Shown here: positions 1-27,236 of the stretch, piece by piece
How the letters are laid out: each line of letters begins with the position of its first letter
How positions within the stretch are numbered: the stretch's first letter is position 1
IMG/VR virus record: IMGVR_UViG_3300017766_000201
Span: 1-27,416 of that record
Direction: 5' to 3' (one strand)
DNA length: 27,416 nucleotides
Origin: a virus
Taxonomy: Duplodnaviria; Caudoviricetes
Position numbers and translations under genes: made by a program
The notes under the pieces: model-generated
What the model was told of the DNA's origin: nothing
Databases searched by the model: none
The model's input: the letters and a program-made list of their open reading frames with translations, nothing else

Positions 1-72
1 GTACTTTCCAAACGAGTTGAAAGAACCTTTAGGGCATTTTAGTTCTGCCTGAACTTTTAGTAAACTTTTCAT
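1..72 (-). CDS. erf: ERF-family ssDNA annealing protein, N-terminal fragment (runs off window)
   Basis: Manual translation MKSLLKVQAELKCPKGSFNSFGKY resembles the ERF N-terminus (Q.ELK.PK...N.FGKY). Not in the ORF track. Confidence 0.75.
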   Translation of the reverse strand, partial: MKSLLKVQAELKCPKGSFNSFGKY

Positions 73-118
73 AGCGTTTATTATTGCGTGCGTTACGGAT
101 GCGCACCCCCCTGTTTAA

Positions 119-277
119 TTAATTTACAAAATATATGTGGTCACAATCTCCTTCACCACAATTCATCCACAACTCTTTACCTAATTCAGTTGCTTCCTCA
201 TCGTTTTGGCATTCGTATGCGTTCATCCATAACTCGTTGCCTTGTTCGTCTGCGTAAATAAAAAAGTAAGTTTTCAT
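119..277 (-). CDS. small acidic hypothetical early protein (52 aa)
   Basis: Manual translation MKTYFFIYADEQGNELWMNAYECQNDEEATELGKELWMNCGEGDCDHIYFVN. Directly downstream of a promoter, with AACGCTATG start context. Confidence 0.75.
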   Translation of the reverse strand: MKTYFFIYADEQGNELWMNAYECQNDEEATELGKELWMNCGEGDCDHIYFVN

Positions 278-301
278 AGCGTTTTATTTAAATGTTATAT
301 G

Positions 302-331
302 CAAATATAATACTTATTTTAATTCTGCAAA
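302..331 (-). promoter_or_regulatory. Bacteroidota housekeeping-sigma promoter (early)
   Basis: Minus strand reads TTTG-N18-TATATTTG, matching the -33 TTTG / -7 TAnnTTTG consensus. 287-309 is identical to 6613-6635. Confidence 0.75.
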
Positions 332-829: not shown

Positions 830-1899
830 AAAGGCAGTTGTTTTAAGATTTTGTAAAGTACATTAACTACGATTGAATTGCCTGCTTGCTTATATGCTTG
901 TGAGTCGCTCACGTTCCAAGTAAATGTATCAGGAAAGTCCATTAATCGAAAGCATTCTCTTGGAGTTAAACGTCTAATATAATTAGATTTAATTTTAGTT
1001 CCTTCTCCGTGTCCAAACCATAGCGTTGGACAAATTCCTTCTTCATCATATACACATCCATTCATTCCTATTCCTGATGGATTTGTATTACCTACTTTAA
1101 TCATTTTAGGTTGTTTGTAATCAGTTGCACTTAAACAACTCATTGCTTTAGAATTTAAATCATAAACCGAACCACGCTCCCCTCCTTTATTTAGATTTGC
1201 TATTTCTCCATTCGTTTTTTCCTGAAATGTAATTAACTCTAACATCTTCTCACTCAAAAAATACTTTTCATCTATATCACTATCCAGCACATCCTTCAAT
1301 CTCTTGGTCAAATGCTCTTCTCGTGGGAATTGAAATCGGTTGTCAGCATCATCACGGATACCAACCAAGAAAACTCGCTCACGATTCTGCGGAACTCCGT
1401 GATGCTTTGCATTAAGTACTTGCCAATATAAGTGATAAGGAACTGAATCATCATAAGGAAATAGCACTGGTACTCCGTTGACTGATTTTCCACCAAGCAT
1501 ATTTACCCACTCTTGAAACGTTCTTCCGTTGTCATCCGATAGTAAACCTTTAACATTCTCAAATATAAAAAATCGTGGTTTGTTTACCTGAATAAACTCG
1601 TGTGAGTTAAAAAACAAAATGCCTCTCTTATCGTCTTTTCCTAAACGCTTCCCTGCCAAACTGAATGCTTGACAAGGCGGTGATGTCATATAGATATCAA
1701 GTGATTCAGTCGGAATCTCTCGGTCATATACATTGGTTGGATAGTATTTAGGTTCACCATAGTTATGGATGAATGTATCTCGTGCATACTTATCCATATC
1801 ACAGGCAAACTCTTCTTCGTAATTTACTCCTAAACGCATTAGAGCTTGGTTGAATGCTCCTACACCTGAAAAGTCCGAACCTACTTTTAATTTTTTCAT
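826..1899 (-). CDS. DNA (cytosine-5) methyltransferase, orphan
   Basis: Motifs FSGVG (I), PPCQAFS (IV), ENVKGL (VI), QNRERVF (VIII), RRLTPRECFRLMDFP (IX), YKQAGNS (X). Confidence 0.95.
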   Translation of the reverse strand: MKKLKVGSDFSGVGAFNQALMRLGVNYEEEFACDMDKYARDTFIHNYGEPKYYPTNVYDREIPTESLDIYMTSPPCQAFSLAGKRLGKDDKRGILFFNSHEFIQVNKPRFFIFENVKGLLSDDNGRTFQEWVNMLGGKSVNGVPVLFPYDDSVPYHLYWQVLNAKHHGVPQNRERVFLVGIRDDADNRFQFPREEHLTKRLKDVLDSDIDEKYFLSEKMLELITFQEKTNGEIANLNKGGERGSVYDLNSKAMSCLSATDYKQPKMIKVGNTNPSGIGMNGCVYDEEGICPTLWFGHGEGTKIKSNYIRRLTPRECFRLMDFPDTFTWNVSDSQAYKQAGNSIVVNVLYKILKQLPL

Positions 1900-1910
1900 A
1901 GCGTGTTTTT

Positions 1911-5055: not shown

Positions 5056-5448
5056 CTATAAACTTTTTTCGTATTTACCTAATTTTATATGTCGCTGAAT
5101 CTTCTTGAACTGCGTGTACGTTTTTGCCTTTAGAACGTCTTTTATTAAGTCAGGTGAATCATCGTAGTAAGGAAGCGTTGCACCATATAAGACCTCATCT
5201 ATTCGCCTTGTAGCTATCTTGTAGTCTTCGTATCCGAAACGATGTAAGTCTTCGTGTTGACGTAGTCCGTGAAGGACAGTAGCGTGGTGTTTACCACCAA
5301 ACATATTTCCAATTTCGGTTAACGTGTAGTCAATTTTGCGCAGTTCGTTGTAGAGGTAGTACCTGCGGTATATGTAATCTCTACTGCGGTTTTTTGATTT
5401 TAAGCCGTATTCATTGATCAGGCTTTCTATAAGTTCTAATTTTGTCAT
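5056..5448 (-). CDS. DnaA C-terminal (domain IV)-like HTH protein
   Basis: LTEIGNMFGGKHHATVLHGLR resembles the DnaA signature L.EIG..FGGRDHTTVLHA. Confidence 0.75.
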   Translation of the reverse strand: MTKLELIESLINEYGLKSKNRSRDYIYRRYYLYNELRKIDYTLTEIGNMFGGKHHATVLHGLRQHEDLHRFGYEDYKIATRRIDEVLYGATLPYYDDSPDLIKDVLKAKTYTQFKKIQRHIKLGKYEKSL

Positions 5449-5600
5449 TTCGGTTCGATTGGGGTTACTATAAATTTTCCGTCATTGTATCTGCCTGTCA
5501 CAAGTAAGTCGTGTTTCTTCCAATAGGCTAAAGACTGCGAGGTGAGTATCCATTCTTGAACTACTGCCAGTCCTATTTTGTATGTTAGTTTGTATCTCAT
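5445..5600 (-). CDS. hypothetical protein (51 aa)
   Basis: Start moved to MRYKLTYK at 5600, which gives an ATGA overlap with the upstream stop. Confidence 0.6.
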   Translation of the reverse strand: MRYKLTYKIGLAVVQEWILTSQSLAYWKKHDLLVTGRYNDGKFIVTPIEPK

Positions 5601-5797
5601 AGCTTTTCTAATTCGTGTTTTACTTCTTTCCAAAAATCTATTATTAGTCTATTTTGCCAATGATGCTCGTGTAAAGCCTCAATTACTTCATTAACTGCAA
5701 CCAGTGCGCACATAACTGAATCTTCATAGACTTCATCGTGCATCAACACGGATGAAAATTGCTCTACTAAATCTAATGCTTTTTCTTTCGGTGTCAT
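5597..5797 (-). CDS. hypothetical protein
   Basis: 66 aa, MTPKEKA..L...W.EVK.ELEKL. Translationally coupled on both sides. Confidence 0.7.
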   Translation of the reverse strand: MTPKEKALDLVEQFSSVLMHDEVYEDSVMCALVAVNEVIEALHEHHWQNRLIIDFWKEVKHELEKL

Positions 5798-6440: not shown

Positions 6441-6603
6441 TCTCTTCGATTTTATCTAAAATGTTTACTAATGCACCCCATTGCGCTTGGGTGTGTAGCG
6501 TACCTCTGTCATCATAGCCAAACCATCTACGTTGTTCCTGAAGCTCTGCGTAAAGCTCTCTTTCTTCGTTGAAGATTAGTTCTAAAATTTCTTCTTTTGT
6601 CAT
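6427..6603 (-). CDS. first early gene, hypothetical (58 aa)
   Basis: Start MTKEEIL at 6603 with AACGCTATG context, directly after a promoter. The longer track ORF overlaps that promoter. Confidence 0.7.
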   Translation of the reverse strand: MTKEEILELIFNEERELYAELQEQRRWFGYDDRGTLHTQAQWGALVNILDKIEENENN

Positions 6604-6627
6604 AGCGTTGTTTTTAAATGTTATATG

Positions 6628-6657
6628 CAAATATATAGATAAGGTTTCAATTATCAA
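6628..6657 (-). promoter_or_regulatory. Bacteroidota housekeeping-sigma promoter (main early)
   Basis: TTG-N19-TATATTTG. 6601-6635 matches 275-309 at 33 of 35 nt. Confidence 0.75.
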
Positions 6658-6936: not shown

Positions 6937-6947
6937 CTATATTAAAC

Positions 6948-6973
6948 AAAAAAGCCCCCGATTAAGGAGGCTC
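6948..6973 (-). terminator. intrinsic terminator ending the late/lysis operon
   Basis: GAGCCUCC-UUAAUC-GGGGGCUU running into a U6 tract. Confidence 0.8.
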
Positions 6974-7000
6974 TTACGCTATGAATAGTGGCAGGTGTCA
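6948..7000 (-). ncRNA. candidate ~50-nt antisense sRNA
   Basis: TATATTTG element at 7001-7008, then UUCAUAGCGU (complement of early start regions), then the terminator. Confidence 0.45.
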
Positions 7001-7009
7001 CAAATATAA

Positions 7010-8041
7010 TCAGAATATGTGACTTAAACGTGCAATTTGTCCGTGTTTTTTATGATGCAGGAATCCTTCGATAGCTTTCGGAGCGTGCTGATAGCCTGAA
7101 CGGTGATGCCAGCTATCAGTTCCTGATGCCGAGCGCAATGATTCAACGGTTACTCCTTGATAGTCTTTGGATAGTTTGTGGTGAACGTGGTGCATATAAA
7201 CATACCTGTGCTTTGTCAAGCTCCAATCCATAGGAAACTCGGTAGCCAATAAAAGCGGAAGATCCTGCTGCTTCGCTCCATCTCCGTGAGTAGTTCCGAT
7301 TAGGTTCTCTCCGTATCGATAAGCCTTGCGATGTTGAAGAGAGCAGTCGAAAGTAATGTTTGCAGCTTGACGAAAATGTGTTTTGATACAATCAGCAAGA
7401 AAGAATCCGTGAGTGTAATCGTGGTTAGAAGGATTGAACACAAAATGCACATCAGCCAAAGCAATGAGTTTTTCAAGAATCTCAACATATAATTGTTTTG
7501 CGGTTAAAAAATTACGATACCACATCCCATCCGTGTCTTGTGGAGTGCCTGACGTGGTAGTTCGTCTCGGAGTATCTATGTGTAGAATGTCGTTTCCACC
7601 AACGAATAGAATCTTATCTATATGAAAGCCTGCCGACTTGTCTAAAATGCCTTGTACACCCTCTAAAACGCGTTGTACGGCTATTTGAGAGTTGTATTCT
7701 TCACCAGTTTCAAATGCATCGCATAGTTTTCCTATGTGGATGTCAGCAGGGTCTATGACTAACAAGTGTCCTTCTTCGCTTTGGGTTCGTGTTAACGTAG
7801 GATAAGACGGAGAATGCTCGGCAATGGAGTTGATTAGCTCATCTTTAAACTCGTTGAACTTGTCTTGTTGTCCGTTGAAGTTTGGATTTTTAAAGAATAG
7901 TGATGCCTCTTTGTTTTTTATCCATCCGTGTTTGACGTCCTTTTCGTCTAACCCGAGTGAGTTAGCTTCTTTTTTTATCGCTCTGTACTGATTGACTATT
8001 TCTACTTCGTCAGGTTTTAAGCGATAGCGTGTTTGTTTCAT
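7010..8041 (-). CDS. calcineurin-like metallophosphoesterase
   Basis: DIHIG, GNDILH, SNHD, HGD and HHVHH metal-binding motifs. Confidence 0.8.
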   Translation of the reverse strand: MKQTRYRLKPDEVEIVNQYRAIKKEANSLGLDEKDVKHGWIKNKEASLFFKNPNFNGQQDKFNEFKDELINSIAEHSPSYPTLTRTQSEEGHLLVIDPADIHIGKLCDAFETGEEYNSQIAVQRVLEGVQGILDKSAGFHIDKILFVGGNDILHIDTPRRTTTSGTPQDTDGMWYRNFLTAKQLYVEILEKLIALADVHFVFNPSNHDYTHGFFLADCIKTHFRQAANITFDCSLQHRKAYRYGENLIGTTHGDGAKQQDLPLLLATEFPMDWSLTKHRYVYMHHVHHKLSKDYQGVTVESLRSASGTDSWHHRSGYQHAPKAIEGFLHHKKHGQIARLSHIF

Positions 8042-13212: not shown

Positions 13213-13237
13213 AAAAAAGGCAGACCGAAGCCTGCCC
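13213..13237 (-). terminator. intrinsic terminator after the tail tube gene
   Basis: GGCAGGC-UUCG-GUCUGCC then U6 (cUUCGg tetraloop). Confidence 0.9.
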
Positions 13238-13258
13238 TTTAACGCTATGAAAAAAAGA

Positions 13259-13816
13259 TTAAGAAGCAACGATGGTAGTAGTCGCACCAAATACGCTACC
13301 TGCACCAATTAGACCTGCTTCAGAAGTTGCATCAAGTAGATTGGCAAGGATTTTTTCAGTGCCTACAAACGTCAATGTATAACCAACCATATCGCCCATT
13401 GCAACACCATTTGACACGTTAGCAGTAGTCAACTCCATTCCGTGTTCTAAACCTGCAAGGAAGAATTGGTTGTTACGTGTTTTGATTACTACGTTAGGAC
13501 GTCCGTAAGACAATAACTTAACCGTCTTGTGAGTTGCAGCATCTTGTTTCTTTAAAGTAACTGACAAAGTCTGCTCTACAAATGAAGTTCCGTTCTCACG
13601 TGAAGTTGTGATAACTTGGTCAAAAGAGTTCGTTCCTTTAAGTTGGTATTTGTAAAGTGAAGTTACGTTAGCAATTGCATCAATTGTGTCAGTTGTAGAA
13701 ACGTAAGTTATGTCAGTTGCAGAGTTGTAGTCTCCGTAGTTAATAAAGTAGATAGCGTCAATACCGCCTACTACGTCCTTACATACTTCTAATCTGCCTG
13801 TTGTTATTTCGCACAT
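13259..13816 (-). CDS. major tail tube protein
   Basis: CKD.VGGI..IYF, SRENGT.F.EQTL...L and GYTLTF.G.E pattern. No sheath gene nearby. Confidence 0.7.
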   Translation of the reverse strand: MCEITTGRLEVCKDVVGGIDAIYFINYGDYNSATDITYVSTTDTIDAIANVTSLYKYQLKGTNSFDQVITTSRENGTSFVEQTLSVTLKKQDAATHKTVKLLSYGRPNVVIKTRNNQFFLAGLEHGMELTTANVSNGVAMGDMVGYTLTFVGTEKILANLLDATSEAGLIGAGSVFGATTTIVAS

Positions 13817-26711: not shown

Positions 26712-27236
26712 TTAAATTAATTCATATTGTTCGTTTAAAAAGTCGGTATAATCATCGCCTACCGATTGACGTATTTTTTCTTTGCAAGATTTTATAGTTA
26801 GGAAAATAGACTTTAAGCTGATACCTGTTTCATCTGCTATTTGACGCATTGGTTTTCTTTCGTCTTTATATATCTTCCATAGCTTTTGGTCGTACCAGTT
26901 CCAACCTTTAATCTCCCATTCAATCCTATCGTAGATTTTCTCTAATGATTCGTGTTTTGCTATGACTGGTTCTTCATAAGATAAATCATAAACATCGTTT
27001 AAATCTAACCTATCCATCTTCTGCTTTCTGATGTGGTCAATGTAAACACTTCGCAACGTCAACCACATATGCCCTCTATTAATATCATCTCCTACAATCT
27101 TGTCTATATGATTTAAACGTAAAATGCGTAGGTATGTTTCCTGTACGATGTCTTCAGCAAGGAACTCGTCACCAAATGTACGGACTACTGATAGCCATTC
27201 TTTGTGGTGTTTTGCTAATGTAGTTATCTTGTCCAT
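26712..27236 (-). CDS. ECF-like RNA polymerase sigma factor
   Basis: Region 2 AEDIVQETYLRI and region 4 HTH MRQIADETGISLKSIF, 174 aa. Confidence 0.85.
   Translation of the reverse strand: MDKITTLAKHHKEWLSVVRTFGDEFLAEDIVQETYLRILRLNHIDKIVGDDINRGHMWLTLRSVYIDHIRKQKMDRLDLNDVYDLSYEEPVIAKHESLEKIYDRIEWEIKGWNWYDQKLWKIYKDERKPMRQIADETGISLKSIFLTIKSCKEKIRQSVGDDYTDFLNEQYELI

Follow-up and report, generated by a model that had tools for sequence, protein, structure and literature searches.

The phage represented by the DNA analysed here (27,416 nt, an 88%-complete virus record; the whole stretch is referred to as the window) appears to carry a FopS-like antisense repressor of its own tagged early genes, supplied chiefly as a stand-alone RNA with the ends of late mRNAs adding to it, a reading that we favour with modest confidence. 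Copies of UUCAUAG(CGU) ending before predicted terminators would give RNAs that pair across CUAUGA start codons and block early translation. The argument is built on the sequences themselves and on their polarity, conservation, enrichment and covariation.

All window genes lie on the minus strand and, by PHROG comparison, follow the order sigma-like, terminase, structural, portal, endolysin, exonuclease-like, small early genes, replication initiator, helicase, methyltransferase and NinG. Since the starts lack Shine-Dalgarno sequences and TAnnTTTG elements precede genes, we infer a Bacteroidota host. The only cultured matches to the capsid-like protein were the Nonlabens phages P12024L and P12024S, at 30% identity. 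Three gene labels used in an earlier, preliminary description of this DNA fared differently. The C5 methyltransferase at ATG 1899 was backed by a PHROG match. The ERF label at ATG 72 is positional; only 24 residues lie inside the window, and they match a relative's ERF at E 0.09. The tail tube label is a lead only: the PHROG is of unknown function, the nearest named Atlas clusters are tail tubes (0.85 and 0.83) and the gene follows a capsid-like gene; the single-sequence structure model of the protein reached a pLDDT of 32, and there was no sequence match in PDB.

The motif ACGCTATGA has six matches in the window, compared with a mean of 0.19 in shuffled sequence (maximum 1 in 100 shuffles). 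Four copies lie in sense orientation at early ATGs. The other two, at 13242-13250 and 6976-6984, are antisense, and each adjoins a predicted terminator on its 5' side (Table 1). Both antisense units are on the coding strand, 0.4 to 13 kb away from their targets. The preliminary description had proposed that the 3'UTR of the tail tube gene silences early genes by pairing with four of their start regions. The sequence between the tube stop (13261-13259) and the C(UUCG)G hairpin reads as it said, and recomputing the perfect complements returned 13 nt at ATG 72, 13 nt at 277, 14 nt at 1899 and 10 nt at 6603. It included the tube UTR copy and overlooked the second antisense copy at 6976-6984, and its target list omitted the shorter tagged start at ATG 5600. 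The promoter-plus-leader cassettes at 6635-6597 and 309-271 are near-identical, each standing ahead of an early gene.

Table 1. Features of the window that bear on the predicted antisense system (all on the minus strand).
Position	Strand	Feature	Basis
13259..13816	-	Putative tail tube gene, 185 aa; label a lead only	PHROG 19091 (unknown function); 36% identity to gp03 of Nonlabens phage P12024L
13213..13258	-	Putative tail tube 3'UTR with a U-rich stretch, the seed and the terminator	Sequence and fold prediction
13241..13256	-	UTR seed, complementary to four long early tags over 10-14 nt	Sequence complementarity
13213..13240 (stem 13240-13215)	-	Predicted intrinsic terminator, C(UUCG)G loop	Fold z -3.4
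7010..8041	-	Exonuclease/metallophosphoesterase-like gene, last before the stand-alone unit; own start short-tagged	PHROG 704
7001..7008	-	TATATTTG, fitting the Bacteroidota -7 element TAnnTTTG, right after the exonuclease-like stop	Consensus in the available text of PMC7366714
6946..6996	-	Predicted stand-alone small RNA of ~50 nt (putative start): seed 6985-6976, stem 6975-6950, U tract	Sequence and fold
6597..6635	-	First early promoter TATATTTG 6635-6628, 24-nt leader, tagged ATG 6603	Sequence match
5597..5603	-	Short tag GCTATGA at ATG 5600, overlapping the previous stop	Start-context scan
1891..1904	-	Tagged start, C5 DNA methyltransferase, ATG 1899	ACGCTATGA copy and PHROG label
271..309	-	Second early promoter TATATTTG 309-302, leader, tagged ATG 277	Sequence almost identical to 6635-6597
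66..78, ATG 72	-	Tagged start, ERF by position; ORF leaves the window	ACGCTATGA copy

Burial of the seed in structure, named beforehand as something that would count against pairing, is predicted in part only: the UTR seed is open in the terminated UTR (unpaired probability 0.89-1.0) and becomes partly paired once 150 nt of tube coding sequence is attached (0.16-0.88). Predicted duplexes of the UTR copy with the four long tags reach -17.2 to -19.7 kcal/mol, as compared with -10.2 for the best late start, and when all window start regions are ranked by this energy the top five are early (-19.7 to -11.9 kcal/mol). No host-type TAnnTTTG promoter lies beside the UTR copy. Six freshwater metatranscriptomes, covered as assembled contigs only, contain 6-11% of the words. 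In two of them the scaffold-capsid-tube contig of a relative ends at 13247 and 13248; its depth is 222 and 58, against 48 and 20 for the contig that follows downstream. One of the two has an 8-letter loose end, and two further runs lack cover there. These contig ends are at most a weak hint in support of the tube terminator, and contigs cannot show a small RNA.

The second antisense copy reads as a stand-alone RNA gene of ~50 nt (6946-6996), because a predicted terminator follows its seed immediately and TATATTTG (7008-7001) stands ~16 nt ahead of the seed; it would also serve as a 3' end for late transcripts crossing the exonuclease gene. According to PMC7366714, TAnnTTTG is the -7 promoter element for the primary sigma factor in Bacteroidota. 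Searching for promoters by sequence, we found TAnnTTTG upstream of the stand-alone copy and a predicted terminator after both seeds, and scans for sigma-70 promoters gave chance level only. The stand-alone seed is predicted to be unpaired in an RNA ending at the U tract, and three of its bases to pair with the tail when the RNA extends past that point.

The stand-alone copy was better conserved than the UTR copy. In a set of 21 genomes, made up of the window and 20 whole records, the stand-alone unit was present in 20, or in 16 of 17 once G017-G020, which had been picked through the seed pattern, were dropped; a TAnnTTTG match at this copy was likewise found in 20 of the 21. The exception is G005, where TCATAGCGT falls within a terminator hairpin at the same place, after the exonuclease gene (~6460 nt past the tube gene). 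Relatives keep the promoter and the seed of the unit and vary in spacer length and hairpin sequence, and the unit is retained down to 60-66% exonuclease identity. When we looked for CATAG within 32 nt of a terminator stem, it occurred at 20/21 stand-alone, 16/21 tube, 0/17 capsid and 4/27 other terminators. A wider survey covered 80 tube loci found through the tube protein, a redundant set with 25 distinct UTR starts among the 49 loci that are intact: TCATAG was present in the UTR in these 49, was formed by the last codon plus stop only in 12, had one mismatch in 16 and was absent in 3.

The tube UTR copy is probably the lesser of the two, and the stand-alone RNA may even regulate alone, with the UTR copy either left over from duplication of a seed-terminator cassette or contributing only weakly; we consider this unlikely, while giving it a real chance. 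It would account for the UTR seed being intact in just the 49 of 80 loci, for its predicted partial burial in the full mRNA, and for UTR extensions that by eye mismatch the local tags in G009 and G010. Against it, the final codon and the stop together spell TCATAG in 12 of the 31 loci that lack an intact UTR seed (also in 24 of the 49 that have one), the neighbouring capsid terminator is never seeded, and in the window the UTR copy matches its targets over a longer stretch (10-14 nt) than the stand-alone copy does (9-10 nt).

Pattern scans of viral sequences added context. The first mostly caught unrelated reverse complements of Shine-Dalgarno plus ATG sequences, and from it we retained the rows with the family hairpin. 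The second preselects TCATAG and informs on context, not on prevalence: 77 of its 120 loci lay right behind an exonuclease homologue, 75 of these 77 with a terminator. Promoter-seed-terminator units were also seen in L243, L289 and L347, viral contigs without a detected exonuclease homologue, and may represent other positions or families. The cultured relative P12024L has neither seed-terminator unit, and CTATGA occurs at 2 of its 58 starts. At the portal start of many relatives (e.g. G002, G005 and G013), TCATAG lies 8 nt before the ATG, within the end of the previous gene; this copy, which the window lacks, could fold back on the start codon or may reflect a coding constraint only.

Early genes are enriched in the tag, and late genes are at background. 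With starts called by a simple motif-blind rule (earliest ATG, limited overlap; some starts missed), early starts carried CTATGA in 101 of 496 cases and late starts in 11 of 582; for GCTATG the numbers were 60 and 3. These counts are pooled over 21 related genomes and so overstate independence. The direction for CTATGA was the same in 21/21 genomes, and leaving out the motif-chosen G017-G020 gave 77/407 early versus 8/465 late. Counting protein families instead, tagged starts amounted to 32/107 early versus 5/56 late (p 0.003). As background, CTATGA occurred at 9/1102 and 27/2320 internal in-frame ATGs (~1%), at 13/288 starts across 400 kb of host DNA sampled in five Bacteroidota genomes (from 0/45 up to 8/80), and at 4/214 starts around FopS-like loci. 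The early/late split itself is supported by the host-type promoters, which stand just ahead of 45 early genes and 1 late gene; the first gene behind such a promoter was tagged in 27/45 cases, with the tag 21-37 nt behind the promoter. The first early gene was tagged in 17 of the 21 genomes, and the other most-tagged families were the gene after ERF (13/20; YqaJ-like by position and our reading of the sequence), the next gene (11/20) and ERF (9/19).

The preliminary description had limited the tag to genes that are not translationally coupled. This did not hold up: among the 101 early starts with the tag, 53 share an ATGA overlap with the stop before them, and it is only the long form, ACGCTATG, that sits at uncoupled starts (27 of 28 cases). 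At ATGA overlaps the last codon was CTA or TTA in 100/140 early versus 12/57 late cases, and judging by base pairing both forms can pair with the seed, TTA through G-U.

A favoured start context, together with copied promoter-leader cassettes, could in principle produce such tags by chance or as a by-product, with the antisense copies being reversed remnants of gene starts. The near-duplicate leaders of 6603 and 277, and the fact that half of the short tags fall at Leu-stop/ATG overlaps, are what such an origin would predict. We nonetheless find it barely credible, given that two independent terminators carry the seed, that several unrelated hairpin sequences stand behind the same seed, and that few late starts, internal ATGs or host starts bear the tag; moreover, the favoured -3 base in Bacteroidota is A, not G, in the available text of PMC7366714. 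Terminator specificity and the polarity counts that follow largely refute it.

Throughout the 21 genomes, all 31 sense copies of ACGCTATGA were at the ATG of an ORF (27 called starts and 4 short or cut-off ORFs), and 16 of the 17 antisense copies were at the tube UTR or the stand-alone unit. This strict polarity argues against the motif being an operator, bound as DNA by a phage protein (the DnaA-like helix-turn-helix protein encoded at 5056-5448, for instance), an explanation that we regard as very improbable. The presence of that gene, the distance of 21-37 nt between early promoters and tags (27 of 45 cases) and the position of the stand-alone copy just behind a promoter are compatible with an operator; the motif, however, is not palindromic, its sense copies are always in the ATG register, the antisense copies stand almost only before two terminators, and its variation follows G-U pairing, as in the (C/T)TATGA excess at early ATGA overlaps.

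Covariation with the early starts, which the preliminary description had set as a check for the terminator-proximal copy, was seen for the stand-alone seed. Where the stand-alone seed extension is CG, positions -4/-3 of the tag were (C/T)G in 27 and purine-purine in 9 cases (n=46); where it is UU, they were purine-purine in 29 and (C/T)G in 5 (n=53). At the level of clades, some of whose loci are the same contigs as in the 21 genomes, the -3 base was A in 43/45 tags of a distant UU clade and G in 44/54 at CG loci, and was mixed in a near UU clade (20 A, 15 G), a pattern open to G-U pairs. Because CG lineages lie between two UU groups on the exonuclease tree, at least two changes of the seed extension are needed; on trees of the 21 genomes the extension forms one split. 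The covariation is real but thin, with about two events, and a pooled p-value is not independent evidence. When seeds were swapped between genomes, CG seeds beat UU seeds by 3.3 kcal/mol on targets from CG genomes. On targets from UU genomes the CG advantage was 0.2 kcal/mol, and the UU seeds failed to win on their own targets (-8.6 versus -8.9 kcal/mol). Outside the CG clade the perfect match is frequently just 6-8 nt.

The closest known counterparts are FopS (RF04319) and GibS of B. thetaiotaomicron, which pair at start regions (PMC11697453, PMC7366714, available parts). As described in PMC11697453, FopS is transcribed from a sigma-ABfr promoter, exposes its seed at the 5' end and finishes in a terminator; compensatory mutations back its pairing at translation starts, it is bound by RbpB, and it represses SusC mRNAs; one member, FopS-14, is 3'UTR-derived, and a FopS sequence occurs in one Caudovirales phage. 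The T7 primers listed there for GibS and FopS-10 reveal a 5' core, TTTTTCATAG (PMC11697453). This core is full in the UTR copy and reads TTCATAG in the stand-alone copy, and is predicted to be unpaired in the terminated RNAs. The phage units thus share with FopS and GibS the core in a single-stranded 5' part, the TAnnTTTG promoter, the terminator hairpin and pairing, predicted in the phage, over the starts of operon-first genes. They differ in that the FopS core is followed by TATTAG... (R1'), whereas the phage copies continue CGT, TT or CT; in that FopS has 12-15 chromosomal copies and the phage genome two; and in that FopS and GibS target host glycan transporters, whereas the predicted targets of the phage RNAs are their own early genes, with a co-varying tag. 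The RF04319 covariance model gave no window match at E 10, and its best phage score was 15.3 bits (stand-alone unit of G008) against a cut-off of 56 bits, a cut-off that the B. thetaiotaomicron control set exceeded in 1 of 14 genomes. On sequence grounds, the phage units resemble FopS in layout and are not members of RF04319. The preliminary description knew of no account of this mechanism in such phages; the seed itself has a precedent, as its core is already in GibS and FopS. For the two-unit system, our literature search, which left subscription papers and bioRxiv supplements outside, returned no report of such an antisense tag system in these phages.

A scan of bacterial genomes for the promoter-seed-terminator pattern yielded an estimated 1,900 or so loci, of which 121 were sampled: 52 FopS, 5 FopS-like, 35 of a distinct type from mostly Chitinophagaceae-titled records and 29 others, mostly without a hairpin. 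In Chitinophagaceae-titled genomes (L362, L363, L379, L403, L479 and others), a conserved FopS-like unit has the core followed by GATATTGG or GATATGG; one Ferruginibacter contig bears three tandem copies, and the RF04319 cut-off was not reached in that genome. The available text of PMC11697453 describes the FopS family only for Bacteroidaceae.

The same layout in host chromosomes, and the repression of SusC mRNAs by FopS, make it conceivable that the phage RNAs imitate FopS and act chiefly on mRNAs of the host (e.g. outer-membrane transporters, possible receptors), with the early tags being secondary. About 2-5% of the sampled host starts bear CTATGA. We judge this improbable: it leaves unexplained both the 4 to 10 times higher tag rate of phage early starts over host and late ones and the way in which the tag follows the seed extension, and the pattern in 61 Flavobacteriaceae genomes was not above control (4 versus 2).

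Other classes of regulatory RNA are less similar. P4 CI RNA is a phage RNA grouped with c4 as a blocker of translation near the ribosome binding site, and c4-type immunity RNAs lie on the same strand as the region that they control, directly upstream of it. P22 Sar is a phage antisense RNA that blocks translation and is transcribed opposite its one target, whereas the units described here are on the same strand as several targets, far away, and are not cis-antisense. In 3'UTR-derived bacterial sRNAs the seed lies between the stop codon and an intrinsic terminator, as the tube UTR seed does before its predicted terminator; the tube unit differs in being on a phage late mRNA and in having a promoter-driven twin elsewhere in the genome. 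According to PMC12197685, the c4 RNA of P1/P7 prevents translation of the phage's own mRNA by pairing close to the ribosome binding site. It is a functional analogue in the sense of a phage RNA acting against its own mRNA start, a pairing that is predicted here. It differs in controlling one operon, for antirepressor synthesis, in a temperate phage and probably via loops (PMC12197685, in part), whereas the linear seed of the present phages matches 3-9 starts per genome and has no Rfam match. With the C4 model included, Rfam searches at E 1 yielded 0 hits, both for the window and for four stretches of 14-16 kb taken from three relatives. An immunity role for the RNAs is not indicated, because a Pfam scan detected no integrase, CI-type repressor or antirepressor family; the scan took in two records with terminal repeats and covered 69 of their 116 ORFs, chiefly non-structural ones, many ORFs matching no family; a role in a carrier state or in superinfection control is possible.

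Pairing might also be real and act on termination or RNA stability, by attenuation before the early operon or by activation, instead of on ribosome access. The stand-alone unit is on the same strand and directly upstream of the early region, like c4-type immunity RNAs, and in G005 the seed lies inside the terminator hairpin. We consider such a mode of action very unlikely, as the tag always covers the AUG, and FopS and GibS, which have the same core, repress at translation starts (PMC11697453, PMC7366714, available parts).

Two further elements came to light. At ~5026-4930 on the minus strand of the window, before the replication initiator, lies a candidate second RNA with a TATCTTTG promoter, in which a 5' segment of 6-9 nt could pair with a complementary one located in a terminator-like hairpin. 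Both segments vary from genome to genome and yet remain complementary (e.g. GGCTCGAC/GTCGAGCC, CATCCGAC/GTCGGATG and GGTCTCAC/GTGAGACC), and the element occurs in 17 of the 21 genomes, in two forms, with no Rfam hit. From its sequence it looks like a pseudoknotted RNA of ~95 nt or an attenuator. Separately, a (C/A)GTT...AT motif stands directly before 45 of 582 late and 1 of 496 early ATGs, for example at window ATGs 13175, 16311, 17128 and 24286 and at L240 gp01, gp05, gp08, gp42 and gp45. This motif is a candidate promoter for the phage sigma-like protein (gene at 26712-27236), which would give nearly leaderless late mRNAs.

Returning to the antisense repressor of tagged early genes, we infer promoter and terminator activity, the small RNA, its pairing, the repression and its timing from sequence. 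The main regulator is probably the ~50-nt RNA transcribed from the host-type promoter at 7008. As this promoter looks like the early promoters, the RNA would be made from the start of infection and accumulate, acting as negative feedback, a brake or a timer. The brake would fall on the recombination module of ERF/YqaJ type and on whichever genes come first in the early transcripts. Later, the dose of seed would be raised by late transcripts ending at the stand-alone terminator, together with the capsid-tube transcript ending at the 13240 terminator. Pairing most likely spans about -5 to +9 across the AUG and would exclude the ribosome; the pairing of start codons would matter because Shine-Dalgarno pairing is absent in this phylum. 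The core of the preliminary description, an antisense RNA directed against a shared tag at early starts, is supported by conservation, early enrichment, polarity, the predicted open seed and clade-level covariation that tolerates G-U pairs, and its choice of the tube UTR as the chief source is not. Neither is a purely late-to-early switch, as the constant unit is the stand-alone one, behind a host-type promoter and expected to be on early too.

More broadly, and as a tentative proposal that we think somewhat less probable than its contrary, apparently non-integrating Bacteroidota phages may time infection by RNA and not by a repressor protein: a promoter-driven RNA and late-mRNA seeds would silence an early regulon bar-coded at its start codons, and would form the phage branch of a phylum-wide anti-start-codon superfamily with FopS, GibS and the Chitinophagaceae family. 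In the CG and UU seed-tag pairs, nature already offers a set of compensatory variants. The antisense RNAs known from phages mostly act on a single operon, in temperate phages. If the proposal is true, a phage could order its gene expression compactly and without a protein, by means of a short seed directed at a tagged class among its own genes, in hosts without Shine-Dalgarno sequences and with the start codon as the handle, and FopS/GibS would be widened from a family of gut Bacteroidaceae to a seed design common to phages and Chitinophagaceae chromosomes.
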